Positions 46,718 through 57,212 of a stretch of DNA of 64,000 nucleotides are shown here, one piece after another (within the stretch, counting starts at the first letter, position 1; each line of letters begins with the position of its first letter). The notes under the pieces are model-generated. The model worked only from the letters and a program-made list of their open reading frames with translations. It made no database searches and was not told where the DNA came from. A program made the translations under genes and the position numbers. Source of the DNA: Candidatus Buchananbacteria bacterium (lineage in GTDB: Bacteria > Patescibacteriota > Patescibacteriia > Buchananbacterales > UBA6539); assembly GCA_041664165.1 (NCBI GenBank), contig JBAYLH010000002.1, positions 9,665-73,664 of the forward strand. The letters run 5' to 3'.

Positions 46718-47197
46718 CTAATTTATAATTTTATGAAGCCACTCCCCTGTTTTTCGCCTGCTTTCTTCCGGGGTCTTCAGCGGCTCATTAAACAAAATTT
46801 CGCCGATAATTTCATTGCCAGCCAATTCTTTTTCTAAATTGGCCGCGGCTTTCCCCGGCGTGCCGCCATGGCATAAAAACAAAGCAATTTTTTTATCTTT
46901 GATTTTATTTTCGGCCAAAAAACTGCGAACCGCCGGCGCGAAAGTAAACGCCCAAACCGGCGTGCCTAAAAAGATCAAGTCATAGTCAGCCGGGTTTTTC
47001 GTTAATGGCAGCAGTTTCGGTTTGACTTTAGTCATCGACTGCCGGCCGCCCCAAAGGATTGTAACTAAATTATGGCCGGCCTTGAAGTCTTTTTCCGGCT
47101 TTAATGCTAAAATTTCCGCCCCGGATTTTTGAGCGATTTGTTCGGCAATAAATTTAGTATTACCCGTTAATGAGTAATAAATTACAATGGCCTTCAT
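46718..47197 (-). CDS. flavodoxin-like fold protein
   Basis: MKAIVIYYSLTGNTKF flavodoxin FMN-binding start. Confidence 0.7.
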   Translation of the reverse strand: MKAIVIYYSLTGNTKFIAEQIAQKSGAEILALKPEKDFKAGHNLVTILWGGRQSMTKVKPKLLPLTKNPADYDLIFLGTPVWAFTFAPAVRSFLAENKIKDKKIALFLCHGGTPGKAAANLEKELAGNEIIGEILFNEPLKTPEESRRKTGEWLHKIIN

Positions 47198-49208: not shown

Positions 49209-49643
49209 TTAAGTCGGGGTAATTGACTCAAGCCACTTTGTCGCTTTTTCTTTAGTTCCGGTTGGATTTTTTAACGGTTCGCTGAATAAAGTTTTGCCGA
49301 TAATTTGATTGCCCGCCAGGGCGTTTTCCAGGCTGGCCAAAGTTTTTGCCGGTAAGTCTTCGTGGCAGACAAATAAAGCCAGCTTTTTATTTTCCAATTT
49401 GGCTTGGTTTAAAAAGGTTCTGATCGCCGGGGCAAAATTAAATCCCCAAACCGGCGTGCCTAAAATTATTAAATCATAGTCGGCCAGGTCTTTGGTCAGA
49501 GGTAAAGGCTTCGGCCGACTTTTTGAGCCCTGTCCCCTTTCCGGCTTTAATTCTAAAATATCCGCTCCGGATTTTTGAGCGATTTGCTCGGCAATAAATC
49601 TCGTGTTGCCGGTTAAAGAATAATATATAACAAGGGTTTTCAT
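49209..49643 (-). CDS. flavodoxin-like fold protein (paralog of 46718-47197)
   Basis: MKTLVIYYSLTGNTRF; longer upstream starts are possible. Confidence 0.65.
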   Translation of the reverse strand: MKTLVIYYSLTGNTRFIAEQIAQKSGADILELKPERGQGSKSRPKPLPLTKDLADYDLIILGTPVWGFNFAPAIRTFLNQAKLENKKLALFVCHEDLPAKTLASLENALAGNQIIGKTLFSEPLKNPTGTKEKATKWLESITPT

Positions 49644-49656
49644 ATAGTTTTTCATC

Positions 49657-49819
49657 GTCATTTCGACCGAAGTGAGAAATCCCTTATACATCGATTGACC
49701 CTTTGTCATTCCGAACGAAGTGAATAATCCCTTATACTCGGATTAACCGTCTAACATTTTAAAAGGGATTTCTCACCCCGCCTCTCGGATACGCCTGAAG
49801 CGGGGTTCAAAATGACAAA
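49657..49819. mobile_element. MITE-like repeat copy 1 (TIR TTGTCATTTCGA-type)
   Basis: ~150 nt nearly identical to 50470-50618; internal 33-nt subrepeats GTCATTYCGAMCGAAGTGARAAATCCCTTATAC; ends ...GTTCAAAATGACAAA. Confidence 0.55.
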
Positions 49820-49820
49820 A

Positions 49821-50105
49821 TCAGTTTGGTTTAAACCTCTCAACGTAAACTAGCCGCCACCAAACTCGACCCAAAAGAAAGCCGCCGATAGCGCCAAATA
49901 GCCAAAGCCCGATTTGGATTATCGGTAAAAGCGCACAGCCATGATAAAAAGTAACGGCTATCCCTTGTTTTTCTGTCCAGCCCAAATAGTTGATTTCAAT
50001 TAAAGCGTGGATAATAAAGCTTAGCAGGATGCCTAAAATTGTAGCAGCAATAAGATAAACCGCATGTTTAAATTTGGTTGGATTTTTTGGTGATCCAAAA
50101 AACAT
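49821..50105 (-). CDS. small membrane protein
   Basis: 94 aa, 2-3 TM; between MITE copies. Confidence 0.4.
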   Translation of the reverse strand: MFFGSPKNPTKFKHAVYLIAATILGILLSFIIHALIEINYLGWTEKQGIAVTFYHGCALLPIIQIGLWLFGAIGGFLLGRVWWRLVYVERFKPN

Positions 50106-50119
50106 ATTATTGCTAAAAT

Positions 50120-50416
50120 TTAAAATAATTCTTCATAGAGGTCTTTCCAGTGAGGATTGATTGTTTTAATTAAGTTTTGTTTTTTCTCTCGCCGCCACTT
50201 CTTTATTTCCTTTTCCCTTTCGATGGCGTCATAGACATAATCATAATTTTCGTAATAAACCAATTTGTTGCAGGAGTATTTTTTGGTGAAACCTTTGATT
50301 TCCCCTTGTTTATGTTCATTAACTCGGCGCAACAAATCATTAGTCATGCCAATATACAAAGTGCCGCTTGGGCTAGCCATGATGTAAATATAAAAATTGT
50401 ATTCTCTTTTTGGCAT
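50120..50416 (-). CDS. GIY-YIG nuclease family protein
   Basis: YIYIMASPSGTLYIGMTNDLLRRVNEH GIY-YIG core. Confidence 0.85.
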   Translation of the reverse strand: MPKREYNFYIYIMASPSGTLYIGMTNDLLRRVNEHKQGEIKGFTKKYSCNKLVYYENYDYVYDAIEREKEIKKWRREKKQNLIKTINPHWKDLYEELF

Positions 50417-50434: not shown

Positions 50435-50618
50435 TTGTCATTTCGACCGACCTGTCTATTAGAGGAAAGGAGGGAGAAATCCCTTATACATCGACTGACC
50501 TTTTGTCATTCCGAACAGAGTGAAAAATCCCTTATACTCGGATTAACCGTCTAACATTTTAAAAGGGATTTCTCACCCCGCCTCTCGGATACGCCTGAAG
50601 CGGGGTTCGAAATGACAA
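50435..50618. mobile_element. MITE-like repeat copy 2 with 12-bp terminal inverted repeats
   Basis: TTGTCATTTCGAcc ... ggTTCGAAATGACAA; a third partial GTCATTCCGACC...AATCCCTTATACTC copy lies at ~50646-50690. Confidence 0.55.
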
Positions 50619-50691
50619 AGATAGACCCCTCGTTATTTTTCGTCATTCCGACCGCCGGGAGGAATCCCTTATACTCTGATTGATGAAAGCA

Positions 50692-51177: not shown

Positions 51178-51330
51178 AATATTGTAATTAATTTTGTTTA
51201 GAGAGAGCGAATCTTATAAAGCGTGTTAGGTGATGTAATAATAATTTTTTTCATATTTTTTTAAAAATAAATTTTAAATTTTTTAGATTGCGAATCAGAT
51301 AGACCGTGTTGTAAGAAATTTTATAACCTG

Positions 51331-51933
51331 CTATTCTAGTAGTTTGTTTCTCAGAATCTCTTCTCTTTTTTCTAATTCATCATAAAAAGGCTTAACATTT
51401 TCTTCTGAGTGGCCAATTTTGTGTGCTATTTCACCGGTAATACCTTTTTTTTCAACTCTATTCCAAACCTCAACAAATTCTACGAGCTTGGCGTAGTGTT
51501 CTCTAGTCTCAGGTTCAGCAAGCCAATAATTATTTCGAAAAATTTTTAGCATTTGATTATAAAGTGGTAGGAATTCTTCTATTAATTGTTTATTATTGTA
51601 GTCAATCTCGTAATCAACAGATTTAATGTCTGGGAATTGACCTGCGTCGCATTTTTTTTCCCATATCTTAGTACCAACTCTTTCAATTTTTACTCTTACT
51701 TCACTTTTTGTACGGATTTCTTTTCGGATACCCAGAAGTGGTGAGTAGAATTTGTTGAGTTGTTCCTCAGTTACATTGTGTTTCTTTTGTGCTTTGTATA
51801 ATTTAATACCATAAGTTACGCCTAAGTAGCCAAATAATGCTGGTGCAATAATGGCAACTATATCTTTTATGAAGGATAAGGTAGTAAAATTTGGTATTTG
51901 AGACGGGTTATGCATAGGGTTATAAAATTTCAC
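51331..51933 (-). CDS. membrane-anchored hypothetical protein in AT-rich R-M island
   Basis: One N-terminal TM, charged helical cytoplasmic domain; AT-rich codon usage matching R-M genes. Confidence 0.45.
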   Translation of the reverse strand: MKFYNPMHNPSQIPNFTTLSFIKDIVAIIAPALFGYLGVTYGIKLYKAQKKHNVTEEQLNKFYSPLLGIRKEIRTKSEVRVKIERVGTKIWEKKCDAGQFPDIKSVDYEIDYNNKQLIEEFLPLYNQMLKIFRNNYWLAEPETREHYAKLVEFVEVWNRVEKKGITGEIAHKIGHSEENVKPFYDELEKREEILRNKLLE

Positions 51934-51989
51934 ACAACTTATTTTATCCGAACCAGCTAATTATCTATTCTAAATTCTCGCAATATTAT

Positions 51990-53240
51990 TTATGTCGCGA
52001 ACGCAAATAGCTGTTGTTGCAGGCGTGTAGACTCTTCAATTTCTTCCTTAGCTTCGCCATTTAGCATTTTAATTACCATATCACCAATATAATATCCAAG
52101 ATTTACAGGCACGGCATTTCCTATTTGCTTGTATTGTTGGGAAACGGATCCTGAAAATTTCCAATTATCTGGGAATGTCTGAATTCGTGCATATTCGCGT
52201 ACTGTTAAGGGGCGCGTTTCTTCCGGATGACAACGCTCAGTCTGTTTTTGGGCTGGGCTGCAAGTTAATGTTAAAGATGGTTCGTCCCATGATAATCGTC
52301 TTGCCATGCCAGTCTTGCCGCCACCCATAAAATAGCTAGCCCCCATGTACTCTTTTTGAAGATTTTCTGGGAGATCTCTCCAATATCCACCCGGAGGAAT
52401 TAAGTCCAATATTTCTTTCTTTTTTTCCGGGTATTGCTGCCCTTCTGATTTTGGGCATTTTAAAAGTGCTTCGCGTATGGGGATTATGTAGTCTTTTTCT
52501 TTGGGGAATGAAATAGGGATATCTAGGTCTTTTCTAACGCCGATAATTATTAAGCGTTCTCTTTTTTGCGGGATATCTAAATATTGGGATCGTAAAATTT
52601 TGTATTTGACCCTATATCCGAGTTCCTCTAATACGCTAATCATCGTTTTAATCGTTTTTCCGTTATTATGATTCAACAAGCCCTTAACATTTTCTCCGAT
52701 TGCAATTTTTGGCTTAACTTCCTTGACACATCTCGCAAATTCAAAAAATAAAGTTCCCCTTATATCTTCAAACCCCATTTTATTCCCAGCATAAGAAAAA
52801 GCTTGACAAGGAAAACCACCTTGTACTATATCTGCTTGTCCCTTAAAGAATTTAAGTTTCCCAACATCACCTTCAACCACGTTCCAGTCTGGTTTATTCG
52901 TTCGAAGCGTTTCGCAGGCATGCTTATCATATTCATTCAGTAGAATATGTTTAATTCCCGCATTTTCCATTCCAAGGGCAGTACCACCAGCGCCGGCAAA
53001 TAGCTCAATCGCCGTATACGGAGACATTTTATTATTTTTTAGAATTTTGAATTTGTTTTTTTTATCGCCGCTTGTTCTGCTTTGAATCCTTTCGATTTCA
53101 TCTAGGCAAAACATACGATCATTTCTTTCGTTTCGAAAAGCTTTTATCAATCCTTTTTTATCCCATCTCCTAATAGTATCTATAGAAGTGCCTAATTTTA
53201 TAGCCACTTCGCCAGCGGTAAAAAATTTGTCATTTTTCAT
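51990..53240 (-). CDS. dcm: DNA (cytosine-5)-methyltransferase with N-terminal MerR-like HTH
   Basis: Motif I ELFAGAGG, motif IV GFPCQAFS, ENV, motif X QIGNAVPV; N-terminal HTH (FTAGEVAIKLGTSIDTIRRWDKKG). Confidence 0.9.
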   Translation of the reverse strand: MKNDKFFTAGEVAIKLGTSIDTIRRWDKKGLIKAFRNERNDRMFCLDEIERIQSRTSGDKKNKFKILKNNKMSPYTAIELFAGAGGTALGMENAGIKHILLNEYDKHACETLRTNKPDWNVVEGDVGKLKFFKGQADIVQGGFPCQAFSYAGNKMGFEDIRGTLFFEFARCVKEVKPKIAIGENVKGLLNHNNGKTIKTMISVLEELGYRVKYKILRSQYLDIPQKRERLIIIGVRKDLDIPISFPKEKDYIIPIREALLKCPKSEGQQYPEKKKEILDLIPPGGYWRDLPENLQKEYMGASYFMGGGKTGMARRLSWDEPSLTLTCSPAQKQTERCHPEETRPLTVREYARIQTFPDNWKFSGSVSQQYKQIGNAVPVNLGYYIGDMVIKMLNGEAKEEIEESTRLQQQLFAFAT

Positions 53241-53301
53241 AAAAAATGATAGGTAATTAATCTATCATAATTATATCATATAACCATTGCCTAGGCAAAG
53301 G

Positions 53302-54009
53302 TTATTTTGTGGCAAAAGCCAATTTAAATAGCTCAAAATACTTTTGAGCTTCTTTTTTGCTTAATTTAAACTTATATTTATCTACCAGAATATGGGATAG
53401 TGCCTCGAATAGCTCTTGCAGGGCGTGCTTTCGACCAGTAGCTAGAGCATAAAAGCTGATGCCGTCAACCACCCGGATATTTTTAACATTCGGCCGTCGT
53501 TTTTTAGTTTTATTATCCGGTGGCGTAAAAGGTTTATCATACATATTCTTTCCCTGTGGTATGATTTCCACATAGTATCCGATAAAATCATTATATTTTT
53601 CGGTTTTAAGCTTAGATTTTATGGCATCATAGATTTCAACCTTATGATTGCCCTTTGTCGTATTAAATTTATTTTTTACTTCAGCAATAATTTTCATACT
53701 ATCGCTTGCAACATCCAACCCTCCGCCCGCGCCAAGGTTTTTCCAGCCAGGAATAGCCCCTAAAATTTCTTGATGAAAATCGCCGATAGCATTTTGCATT
53801 GTTTTTTGCGATTGCCTGGCTTTTTCTTGTTCAATCCATTCTTTGTAGGTTATAGCATGTGTTACGCCATGAAATAAGGCAGAAAAAGGGTCAATAACAT
53901 TTTTATGCAGATTATTGCCTGCTTCATGCTCCGCTGTTTCTATTATTTTAACCACCCTGCCAACGGCAAAAATTAGATTTTTATCGGATATAAATTTTAA
54001 GTAAGACAT
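53302..54009 (-). CDS. candidate Type II restriction endonuclease (PD-(D/E)xK)
   Basis: Adjacent to and co-oriented with m5C MTase; GLDVAS...IAEVKNK resembles PD-(D/E)xK core. Confidence 0.5.
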   Translation of the reverse strand: MSYLKFISDKNLIFAVGRVVKIIETAEHEAGNNLHKNVIDPFSALFHGVTHAITYKEWIEQEKARQSQKTMQNAIGDFHQEILGAIPGWKNLGAGGGLDVASDSMKIIAEVKNKFNTTKGNHKVEIYDAIKSKLKTEKYNDFIGYYVEIIPQGKNMYDKPFTPPDNKTKKRRPNVKNIRVVDGISFYALATGRKHALQELFEALSHILVDKYKFKLSKKEAQKYFELFKLAFATK

Positions 54010-54190
54010 AAATTGTCATTAAAATTAATTAAATTGTTTTCTGAGCGACAAGATGGTTGAGGTTACCTCTTAATTTTCTCTCTTTTTCGCTAATTTGTCA
54101 AAAAATATTTATTTTAATTAATAAAAAAAGGACTCACTGCAAAGCAGCAAGTCCCGAGATGTAAAAACGTAAAACCGCCGCGGATATCCG

Positions 54191-55417
54191 CTATGCCCCG
54201 CCTGCCTCCAATTTCTGGCGAAAGCTTTTGAATAACTGCGGCCCAATGTTCAGTTGAAGCGGAATGAACCCAACTTCGGTATGAATGGTGTGCATCGAGG
54301 CCACAATTCCGCCCGAATCGCTTTTGCCGCGAAGCACTGAGGTCATCTCGGTGGGTTCGACCGGAGATTTCCCGGCCGCTTGGGGCTTCATATCGGATTC
54401 TGCCGTATCCAGGTCTCGGACGATCAGGGAGATAAAACCGCGGCAATCGCGGCAGGCCTGGTTGCTTGGGTCAAGCTCCAGCCCTTTGTTCAGGTCGCTG
54501 ATGCTTTTGCCCCAGTTGCCAAGCGCGGCATTGAGCACACCGCTGGTCATCCATGAAGCGGCTGAACGGTCAGGTTTGGCTTCAACCTTTTGCAGTTCTT
54601 CTTTGAGGAGTTTGCGGTTGAATACATAACTCATCATCTCCACATCCTGGTAGCAGTGCGGCCACCAGTGCTGGTTTTCCGAGCGGCCAACGAGGGCTTC
54701 GATGCTTTTTTCGTCAAAGCCACCGGACCATTCCTTGGGCGCAGCCGTGGCACCGGATAAAGGCTCGCCTTTGACCCGATCGCCGGTCAAGCGATAAATC
54801 TCGCCAGTCTGCGCGTCCACCGCCGGCGTGTATTCCGGATTAGCCATGATCCAGCTGCCACCCGCCCAGACCGGACGGATCCCGCGACCCGTAACGTTGA
54901 TGGTCATCAGCCAACCGCCTTGGTTGCGAATCAAGCTTTCGCCGCCCTGATCCAAGACGATTTTGTGAGCCTCGAGGTTGTCCACGACGAACTCTTCGAG
55001 CTTAATCGGTCCGGGGTACATCTTGCTCATGTCGTCGGTTTTTTTGGTGAGTTTGATTTCGCCCCAGCAGTTGATTCGGGCTTCGTACGTGGCGCCGGAC
55101 GTATTCTGGAAGTAAAACACCCAGCCGCCCACGACCCAGCTCAACTCCTGAGTCTCTCGGTTTTGGTACACCGCGGATCGCTCGGGTATGGCGTTCCAGA
55201 GTTTGGCGATTGGGGCTTGATCCTGGCGCTTGAGTTGGATTTCCAGCCGGCCGAGCGCCTGCTTGGCAGTGTACTGTGTCAGTTCGCGGGTTTCTTCCTT
55301 TTCTTGGACGGTCGGCTTGGGGGTAGCCGCAGCAGGACTTGGTGTATTCGAAGTGCTTTGATTACACCCGGCTGCGGTCAGAAGTAGCACAATGGCAAGC
55401 GCAATAATCTTTTTCAT
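54191..55417 (-). CDS. lipoprotein, hypothetical, GC-rich foreign composition
   Basis: Lipobox LLTAAGC; 408 aa; CTG/GAG/CGG-rich codon usage. Confidence 0.55.
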   Translation of the reverse strand: MKKIIALAIVLLLTAAGCNQSTSNTPSPAAATPKPTVQEKEETRELTQYTAKQALGRLEIQLKRQDQAPIAKLWNAIPERSAVYQNRETQELSWVVGGWVFYFQNTSGATYEARINCWGEIKLTKKTDDMSKMYPGPIKLEEFVVDNLEAHKIVLDQGGESLIRNQGGWLMTINVTGRGIRPVWAGGSWIMANPEYTPAVDAQTGEIYRLTGDRVKGEPLSGATAAPKEWSGGFDEKSIEALVGRSENQHWWPHCYQDVEMMSYVFNRKLLKEELQKVEAKPDRSAASWMTSGVLNAALGNWGKSISDLNKGLELDPSNQACRDCRGFISLIVRDLDTAESDMKPQAAGKSPVEPTEMTSVLRGKSDSGGIVASMHTIHTEVGFIPLQLNIGPQLFKSFRQKLEAGGA

Positions 55418-56603: not shown

Positions 56604-57212
56604 TTATTTCTTTTTTGTTTTAGCCTTTTTTGCCGGCTTAGCGATCGTTTTTTTCTTAGCCGTAACTTTAACCGGCTTAGCTTCTTTTGGTGCCGAGACG
56701 GCAGCGGCCGGGACTAAGACTTTGAGGATTTTATCTAATTTGGAGTTCAAAATTTCAAGCTGCTGCCTGACTGAATCGGCCGCTTTTTCCGCCGGCTTGC
56801 TGTCTTTGCCAAAGCACTGGCTGCAGTAAACCGGTTTATCGCCGGTTGGCCGGAAAGGCACTTCGCATTTTTGGCCGCATTTGTCGCAAACAGCGCTAAA
56901 CATCCGTTTTTTTTCAAAGCTCGGCTTTTGGAAATCCCGGCCTTGGGGTCGGCTTGAAGCGGAACTTGAACTGCTGTGTTTACCAAAACACTGGCTGCAA
57001 TAAACCGGCCGGTCGCCGGTGGGTCGAAATGGCACTTCGCATTTTTGGCCGCAGTCGCTGCAGACAGTTTGGTGCATTCCTGGCCGGGAGCCGGCATTAT
57101 CATTAAAATCCCGCTTTTTGCCCCATTTGTCTCCTCTTGATCCGCCATGATTGCTTCTATCAAAATTTTTCATAAGGTTTTTAGTTAATAATTTACTTCT
57201 TAAGTCTCTCAC
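56604..57212 (-). CDS. tandem CxxC zinc-ribbon protein with Lys-rich C-terminal tail
   Basis: Duplicated C..CGQKCEVPFRPTGD.PVYCSQCFGK module; tail KVTAKKKTIAKPAKKAKTKKK. Confidence 0.55.
   Translation of the reverse strand: MRDLRSKLLTKNLMKNFDRSNHGGSRGDKWGKKRDFNDNAGSRPGMHQTVCSDCGQKCEVPFRPTGDRPVYCSQCFGKHSSSSSASSRPQGRDFQKPSFEKKRMFSAVCDKCGQKCEVPFRPTGDKPVYCSQCFGKDSKPAEKAADSVRQQLEILNSKLDKILKVLVPAAAVSAPKEAKPVKVTAKKKTIAKPAKKAKTKKK

Follow-up and report, generated by a model that had tools for sequence, protein, structure and literature searches.

A 64-kb stretch of DNA from a Candidatus Buchananbacteria genome (the whole of which we call the window) carries on its minus strand, in this order, genes for a restriction endonuclease (R), a C5-cytosine DNA methyltransferase (MTase; M) and a membrane-anchored protein (gene 3). 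Positions 51984-54049 are very probably a compact, mobile Type IIP restriction-modification (R-M) cassette of the Eco47II family, with GGNCC as its predicted target site and an MTase that would repress its own gene through a fused helix-turn-helix (HTH) domain and an operator, gene 3 being a separate neighbour. The reading is carried by what is shown, namely the family memberships, the folds as predicted, the linkage of the genes, the conserved operator and the boundaries of the cassette; GGNCC specificity, binding of the operator by the HTH, autorepression and the role of a hairpin before M are inferred. The R-M system typifies a named family; public records already annotate it correctly, as standard pipelines do for the family, and it is of little consequence for R-M biology. 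What novelty remains is the operator that MerR-type HTH-MTases share across phyla, together with the gene 3 family, which is unannotated. The former is sharply defined and offers a directly testable second class of methylase autoregulation beside that of SsoII and Ecl18kI, in a tandem layout; the latter, with hundreds of clusters, turns up repeatedly in defence islands and on mobile elements and is a candidate for defence screens.

The endonuclease and its methyltransferase

The R protein matches Pfam family PF09553 with 168.2 bits (gathering threshold 25.9) over profile positions 1-197 of 202. The same domain is found in every one of its 1047 homologues, and the exact protein is already labelled as Eco47II family at NCBI. 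PF09553 has been assigned to the PD-(D/E)XK nucleases (PMC3424549), which are defined by an alpha-beta-beta-beta-alpha-beta core with D...(D/E)XK on consecutive strands; the R model has this arrangement, and D99, E110 and K112 are conserved without exception across 41 homologues. As modelled, with confidence, R is a PD-(D/E)XK restriction endonuclease. Its structural neighbours EcoO109I (PDB 1wtd) and AvaII (PDB 6g3b) are also PD-(D/E)XK endonucleases, albeit with only 12-13% sequence identity to R and in different Pfam families; sequence and profile searches of the PDB with R both returned no match. A sequence-only reading of the window had proposed this 235-aa protein as the endonuclease on account of a D...E-x-K core. 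The invariant triad bears this out, and the case is now stronger than was claimed, because R belongs to a named family and has a confident nuclease-fold model.

The product of M, METHYLTRANSFERASE (416 aa), scores E=3.6e-84 against PF00145, covering 2-322 of its 324 positions, and also matches TIGR00675 (266.8 bits, E=3.5e-79; cutoff 100.65), and a PDB sequence search recovers M.HhaI (7e-48) and M.HaeIII. The motifs that mark C5-MTases were located directly: I (FAGAGG, aa 81-86), IV with the catalytic cysteine of PCQ (GFPCQ, 142-146), VI (ENV, 183-185), VIII (QKRER, 225-229), IX (REYARIQTFP, 348-357) and X (GNAVP, 374-378). Preceding the catalytic domain, residues 7-53 form an HTH that matches MerR (PF00376, E=9.3e-9, above the gathering score) and MerR_1 (PF13411, E=1.6e-7); HTH_17 completes the Pfam matches, and HTH_3 is not among them. 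Both the 5-methylcytosine MTase and its MerR-like N-terminal HTH had been anticipated from the sequence. The PADLOC MTase_II model PDLC03272 spans residues 8-405, HTH included, and the fused architecture is therefore already represented in reference sets; indeed, the combination of MerR and DNA_methylase domains is common to hundreds of close homologues.

Relatives of R were found at 49 loci in a scan of one genome per species, with 33-92% identity, in Patescibacteria, Proteobacteria, Bacteroidota, Actinomycetota, Verrucomicrobiota and others. At 45 of these an orthologue of M, 58-92% identical in its catalytic part, lies directly adjacent. The two genes occur in four arrangements, being tandem R->M throughout the Patescibacteria clade; other loci have M->R, convergent or divergent pairs. 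Such adjacency across phyla and arrangements indicates a functionally coupled pair, with the adjacent and evolutionarily linked endonuclease and MTase genes of a Type II R-M system, as the sequence-only reading had held. It had named the lack of a nuclease fold together with a solitary MTase as grounds for abandoning that claim; R is instead modelled with a nuclease fold, and the MTase keeps its partner at nearly all loci. The HTH was detected by tblastn in 40 of the 45 M orthologues, and translations add an HTH-like N terminus in L046 and L053, so that only L045, L049 and L058 are clearly without one. At one sister locus (L031:3314-5708), the gene of an AAA_15/AbiEii-like ATPase (534 aa) abuts the endonuclease gene, whose open reading frame (ORF), if begun further upstream, comes to 266 aa and runs into the end of the ATPase gene.

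A mobile cassette of 2.07 kb

The window DNA is 88% identical to sister cassettes in other Patescibacteria (L015 and L016), and this identity is confined to positions 51984-54049, from 40 bp upstream of R to 6 bp beyond the end of M. No sister locus shares its flanks with the window, the genes downstream of the cassettes included. Judged by this alignment, the span is a discrete mobile cassette, and the combination of high identity with unrelated flanks shows horizontal acquisition, which had previously been proposed from base composition. A search for an empty site through 80 Bact_hydrolase loci found no conserved synteny and no formal empty site. Two of these loci (L077 and L125) have a Nudix gene of weak similarity right next to the hydrolase gene, a faint hint that the approximately 4.4 kb between the Nudix and hydrolase genes of the window were inserted.

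A probable operator upstream of the methyltransferase gene

A palindrome, in full AATAACC-TTTGC-CTAG-GCAAT-GGTTAT, sits between the R stop codon and the M start codon, its left arm holding the R stop codon itself (TAA, 53304-53302). It covers the -35 hexamer of the predicted M promoter, the -10 region of which is conserved in 18 members of the Patescibacteria clade. TAACC-N14-16-GGTTA occurs only once in the 64-kb window, and a wider spacer of N8-18 adds no further site. The motif lies no more than 80 bp before M in 30 of the 45 related loci, independently of phylum and of gene arrangement, with only two stray matches in 422 kb of sequence from the loci. A 31st locus, L021, has it at -277 from M; here (L021:856-1140) an insertion of approximately 220 bp lies between the operator and the hairpin and M start, displacing the operator. 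In an alignment of 18 members of the clade, no change occurs in the outer arms TAACC/GGTTA or in the inner arms TGC/GCA, while the intervening positions vary and do not stay complementary, a pattern typical of sites bound by protein and not of an RNA helix.

Taken together, these observations suggest that the HTH of the MTase most likely binds the TAACC-N14-GGTTA palindrome over the -35 box of its own promoter. Autorepression of M by promoter occlusion, a negative feedback proposed by analogy with characterized MTases, would be the most economical reading. R, on the other hand, has no such element: in the sister cassettes there is no operator motif and no conservation beyond approximately 40 bp upstream of R, so that R seems to depend on local promoters and would use whichever one lies upstream. 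The candidate R promoter in the window lies outside the conserved cassette. A half-operator-like GGTAACC at 54060-54066, near this promoter, was rejected as a regulatory site; it is not conserved in sister loci. In the resulting scheme, R would cut GGNCC-type sites and the C5-MTase would protect the same sites.

Between the M -10 box and start codon lies a conserved inverted repeat followed by a run of T (ATGATAG-N9-CTATCAT, then T5). Folded as RNA it reaches -5.2 kcal/mol (z -2.1), and the stem is 7-9 bp long in the Patescibacteria clade. Across 18 sequences of this clade 97.9% of cells are paired, with two compensatory pairs and seven G.U changes; the covariation suggests pairing, albeit not above the shuffle control. 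Loci outside the clade do not carry the element. The hairpin and T-run may form a weak terminator or attenuator of read-through from R; transcripts of the M promoter would begin inside the left arm of the hairpin and escape it.

The membrane-anchored neighbour

Gene 3 encodes 200 aa from a GTG at 51933 or 194 aa from an ATG at 51915, the latter form being used in public databases. A single transmembrane (TM) segment, at aa 19-37 of the 194-aa form, confirms that the third protein is membrane-anchored, and the model predicts an N-terminal, N-out TM helix followed by a cytoplasmic four-helix bundle. Its family (approximately 190-210 aa; 737 cluster representatives) is patchily distributed and accessory, with invariant residues Y57, R74, P117, Y119, T137, R153, E171 and Y178 and a near-invariant motif LVEFVExWNR. 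A PDB sequence search gave no match, PADLOC-DB v2 gave none beyond a chance-level Csm2 (E=0.0097), and no enzymatic or known effector fold was found in the protein. Other contigs with the exact gene belong to the same genome population.

Weighing the alternatives

Eco47II recognises GGNCC, as the Pfam description of the family also states. The recognition sites of EcoO109I and AvaII are likewise of GGNCC type (PMC7337904). GGNCC is predicted as the target site of R and M because of this family membership and these nearest structures. The window contains 71 GGNCC sites against 112 expected (0.63, rank 4 among 104 short palindromes), the island none against approximately 2.8 expected, and 14 sister loci have an observed/expected ratio of 0.60 in their flanks. 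Recognition of a similar site instead, such as GGWCC (as for AvaII and Eco47I) or RGGNCCY (as for EcoO109I), is unlikely, though it would suit the specificities of the two structural neighbours (PMC7337904), and specificity is not fixed by family membership. It runs against the site of the enzyme that gives the family its name, and in the window GGSCC (0.58) is depleted at least as strongly as GGWCC (0.72), which argues against W-only recognition. Names of MTase homologues were dropped as a guide to specificity, the matches being generically named close relatives. The repeat before M may also be read not as an RNA hairpin but as a second operator bound by protein. As DNA it is a perfect palindrome over the expected transcription start, and its covariation does not beat shuffles. 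We nevertheless give this reading little credence: of the changes, seven are one-sided and would keep G.U pairing only on the sense strand, two pairs show compensation, a T-run follows, no second regulator is encoded, and the element is missing from clades outside Patescibacteria that retain the same HTH. Several observations count against the cassette reading itself. GGNCC is also depleted (0.75) in control loci without the system, and avoidance was consequently rejected as a test of specificity, being consistent with GGNCC without discriminating; the R profile does not detect EcoO109I or AvaII, so that the link to both is structural only; the argument that the HTH binds the palindrome is one of conservation; and the exact operator motif is absent from 14 of the 45 loci. 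Several of the latter (L038, L046, L047, L050-L053 and L055) carry a variant, TAACCATGTGTAAGGTTGA, upstream of M, sometimes with a distal GGTTA approximately 21 nt away, together with a variant HTH that reads SKETLRRWDxxGKL where the usual form is S.DTIRRWDKKGL. Recognition helix and operator thus apparently co-vary at the TAACCATGTGTAAGGTTGA loci.

A further point against a self-contained two-gene cassette is that the interval from M to gene 3 contains neither a predicted terminator nor a predicted promoter, and functional coupling by co-transcription is possible in this genome. Gene 3 is co-oriented with M, begins 56-74 bp downstream and is similarly low in GC (0.33), all of which would suit the earlier proposal of a three-gene system with gene 3 as an accessory or abortive-infection partner. 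This proposal is very improbable. Within 5 kb of the R-M pair, a gene 3 homologue is found at 0 of the 49 related loci; the DNA homology to sister cassettes stops at the end of M, excluding gene 3; and homologues of gene 3 occur in 11 other, unrelated neighbourhoods that share no conserved partner and lack an Eco47II R-M system. Gene 3 is very probably a separate accessory-genome gene beside the cassette, without a role in restriction or modification, although it may be co-transcribed by read-through from the cassette. Whether it serves defence in its own right is a different matter. It could act alone in defence or superinfection exclusion, sensing or blocking infection at the inner membrane face, and have been gathered beside the cassette into a small defence island, an idea that we regard as tentative and rather doubtful. 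In 4 of 12 contexts, a raw tally without background correction, well-supported defence genes lie within approximately 4 kb: the R-M pair of the window, ThsB at L004 (E=2.5e-66), an endonuclease-like gene in the same gene string at L001, and, at L008, a split Dsr1 (E=3e-52) and AbiU (E=7e-126) on either side of the homologue with HsdR nearby. Two further contexts have weak matches to Mrr_cat and Peptidase_U49, others hold toxin-antitoxin modules, integrases, plasmid genes and insertion sequences, and the patchy, accessory distribution of the family agrees with such a function. On the other side, the protein matches no PADLOC model and has no enzymatic or known effector fold, and one context is purely housekeeping. 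The broadest proposal, that gene 3 represents an undescribed family of stand-alone phage-defence or exclusion genes accumulating in defence islands and mobile elements, is less probable still; with it goes a more modest second proposal, that the C5-MTases which combine a fused MerR HTH with the TAACC...GGTTA operator are an autoregulatory class of their own, spanning phyla and separate from the SsoII class.

Two neighbourhoods of gene 3 homologues were noted for their gene orders. In a Thermodesulfobacteriota defence island (L008:1074-8537), the order is HsdR, split Dsr1 (SIR2 323 aa + 980 aa), a 136-aa ORF, the gene 3 homologue and AbiU. The Taylorbacteria locus (L001:3984-6591) has four genes closely packed in one orientation: an NmeDI_C/endonuclease-like gene, a His_Phos_1 gene, an ORF of 122 aa and, sharing 4 bp with that ORF, the gene 3 homologue. 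No methyltransferase is visible there within 6 kb.

Relation to known systems

The pair resembles the Eco47II R-M system in that R scores 168 bits on the family hidden Markov model (HMM) near full length and is paired with a 5-methylcytosine MTase. The host here, by contrast, is represented by a Patescibacteria metagenome-assembled genome, and the likeness rests on the family HMM.

A comparison with SsoII and Ecl18kI is of more interest for regulation. Autorepression by the MTase has been demonstrated experimentally for SsoII/Ecl18kI, MspI and EcoRII (PMC2760811). In SsoII/Ecl18kI, a 434-repressor/Xre-like HTH binds the operator AGGACAA-T-TTGTCCT, and the genes are divergent with facing promoters (PMC2760811, PMC3978073); the regulatory domain of SsoII was modelled on the 434 repressor (PMC3978073). 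Like these enzymes, and also MspI, EcoRII and ScrFIA, M has an N-terminal HTH of approximately 55-70 aa fused to a C5-MTase. As in SsoII/Ecl18kI, one long palindromic operator lies directly upstream of M and overlaps its promoter, and autorepression by steric exclusion would be expected by analogy (PMC2760811, PMC3978073). Unlike them, however, the HTH is of MerR type (PF00376/PF13411) rather than 434-repressor/Xre-like, and hence not a homologous regulatory domain; the operator TAACC-N14-GGTTA is unrelated to that of SsoII; and the genes are tandem R->M, not divergent, with no operator upstream of R. Owing to the tandem layout, the activation of R by promoter interference in Ecl18kI cannot apply as described. 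The SsoII-type resemblance suggested by the sequence-only reading thus holds as a functional analogy, in the fused HTH and the promoter-overlapping operator, and fails as membership, given the MerR HTH, the unrelated operator and the tandem genes.

With MerR regulators, M shares a winged-HTH signature, its residues 7-53 matching MerR_1 positions 1-47. MerR regulators combine a winged HTH with a C-terminal coiled coil and an effector domain, and their operator lies inside a promoter spacer of 19-20 bp. In M, the MTase replaces the coiled-coil dimerisation helix and effector domain, so that M is not a MerR regulator in this sense. Furthermore, the operator is centred on the -35 box with a promoter spacer of 17 bp, and the expected action would be occlusion, not the DNA distortion of MerR.

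Layout of the locus and other features of the window

All three ORFs of the sequence-only reading are present on the minus strand as described (Table 1), and so is the AT-rich island that holds them. At a GC content of 0.352 (51200-54110), the island falls below both the window mean (0.431) and the median of 2.9-kb stretches (0.435); no other stretch of that length in the window is lower. The genes of the pair stand at 0.36 (R) and 0.38 (M), and the downstream hydrolase gene at 0.44. The left edge of the island is the terminator of an upstream 408-aa gene with a GC of 0.56, and this GC-rich neighbour exaggerates the contrast on that side.

Table 1. Positions in the window of the genes, protein features and regulatory elements of the locus
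Feature	Position	Strand	Remarks
R gene	53302..54009	minus	Eco47II-family restriction endonuclease, 235 aa
R catalytic candidates	53715-53713; 53685-53668	minus	D99 codon; E110 and K112 in AEVKNK motif
M gene	51990..53240	minus	C5-cytosine DNA methyltransferase, 416 aa
M domains	53222-53082 (HTH)	minus	MerR-type HTH aa 7-53, linker, catalytic domain aa 76-389
Gene 3	51331..51933	minus	membrane-anchored protein of unnamed family, outside R-M cassette
Candidate operator for the MTase HTH	53281..53304		palindrome TAACC-tTTGC-ctag-GCAAt-GGTTA
Predicted sigma-70-type M promoter	53270..53298	minus	TTGCCT-17 nt-TATAAT, TG extended -10; consensus match, 10/12 + TG
Conserved hairpin with T5	53241..53268	minus	ATGATAG-N9-CTATCAT; between M -10 box and M start codon
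Candidate R promoter	54073..54101	minus	TTGACA-17-GAAAAT; outside conserved cassette
Strong intrinsic terminator of upstream 408-aa gene	54129..54155	minus	12-bp stem + T7, -17.4 kcal/mol, z -5.9

The 408-aa gene (54191-55417), directly upstream of the island, encodes a lipoprotein-like product with weak TPR matches; no relatives were found in the metagenome scan, and the gene may itself be foreign. Across the whole window, GGCC (0.67, z -7.2), GATC (0.65) and TCGA (0.75) are depleted as much as GGNCC or more, which suggests pressure from several other R-M specificities in the lineage.

Elsewhere in the window, a 149-bp direct repeat (95% identical; 49671-49819 and 50471-50619) brackets a 94-aa TM ORF (49821-50105) and a GIY-YIG gene (50120-50416), and the repeat pair may have been left by a small unit that was mobile or duplicated. 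Two flavodoxin-like paralogues (46718-47197 and 49209-49709) share 66% DNA identity, and a zinc-ribbon protein gene (56604-57212) contains an internal 96-bp duplication with 82% identity.

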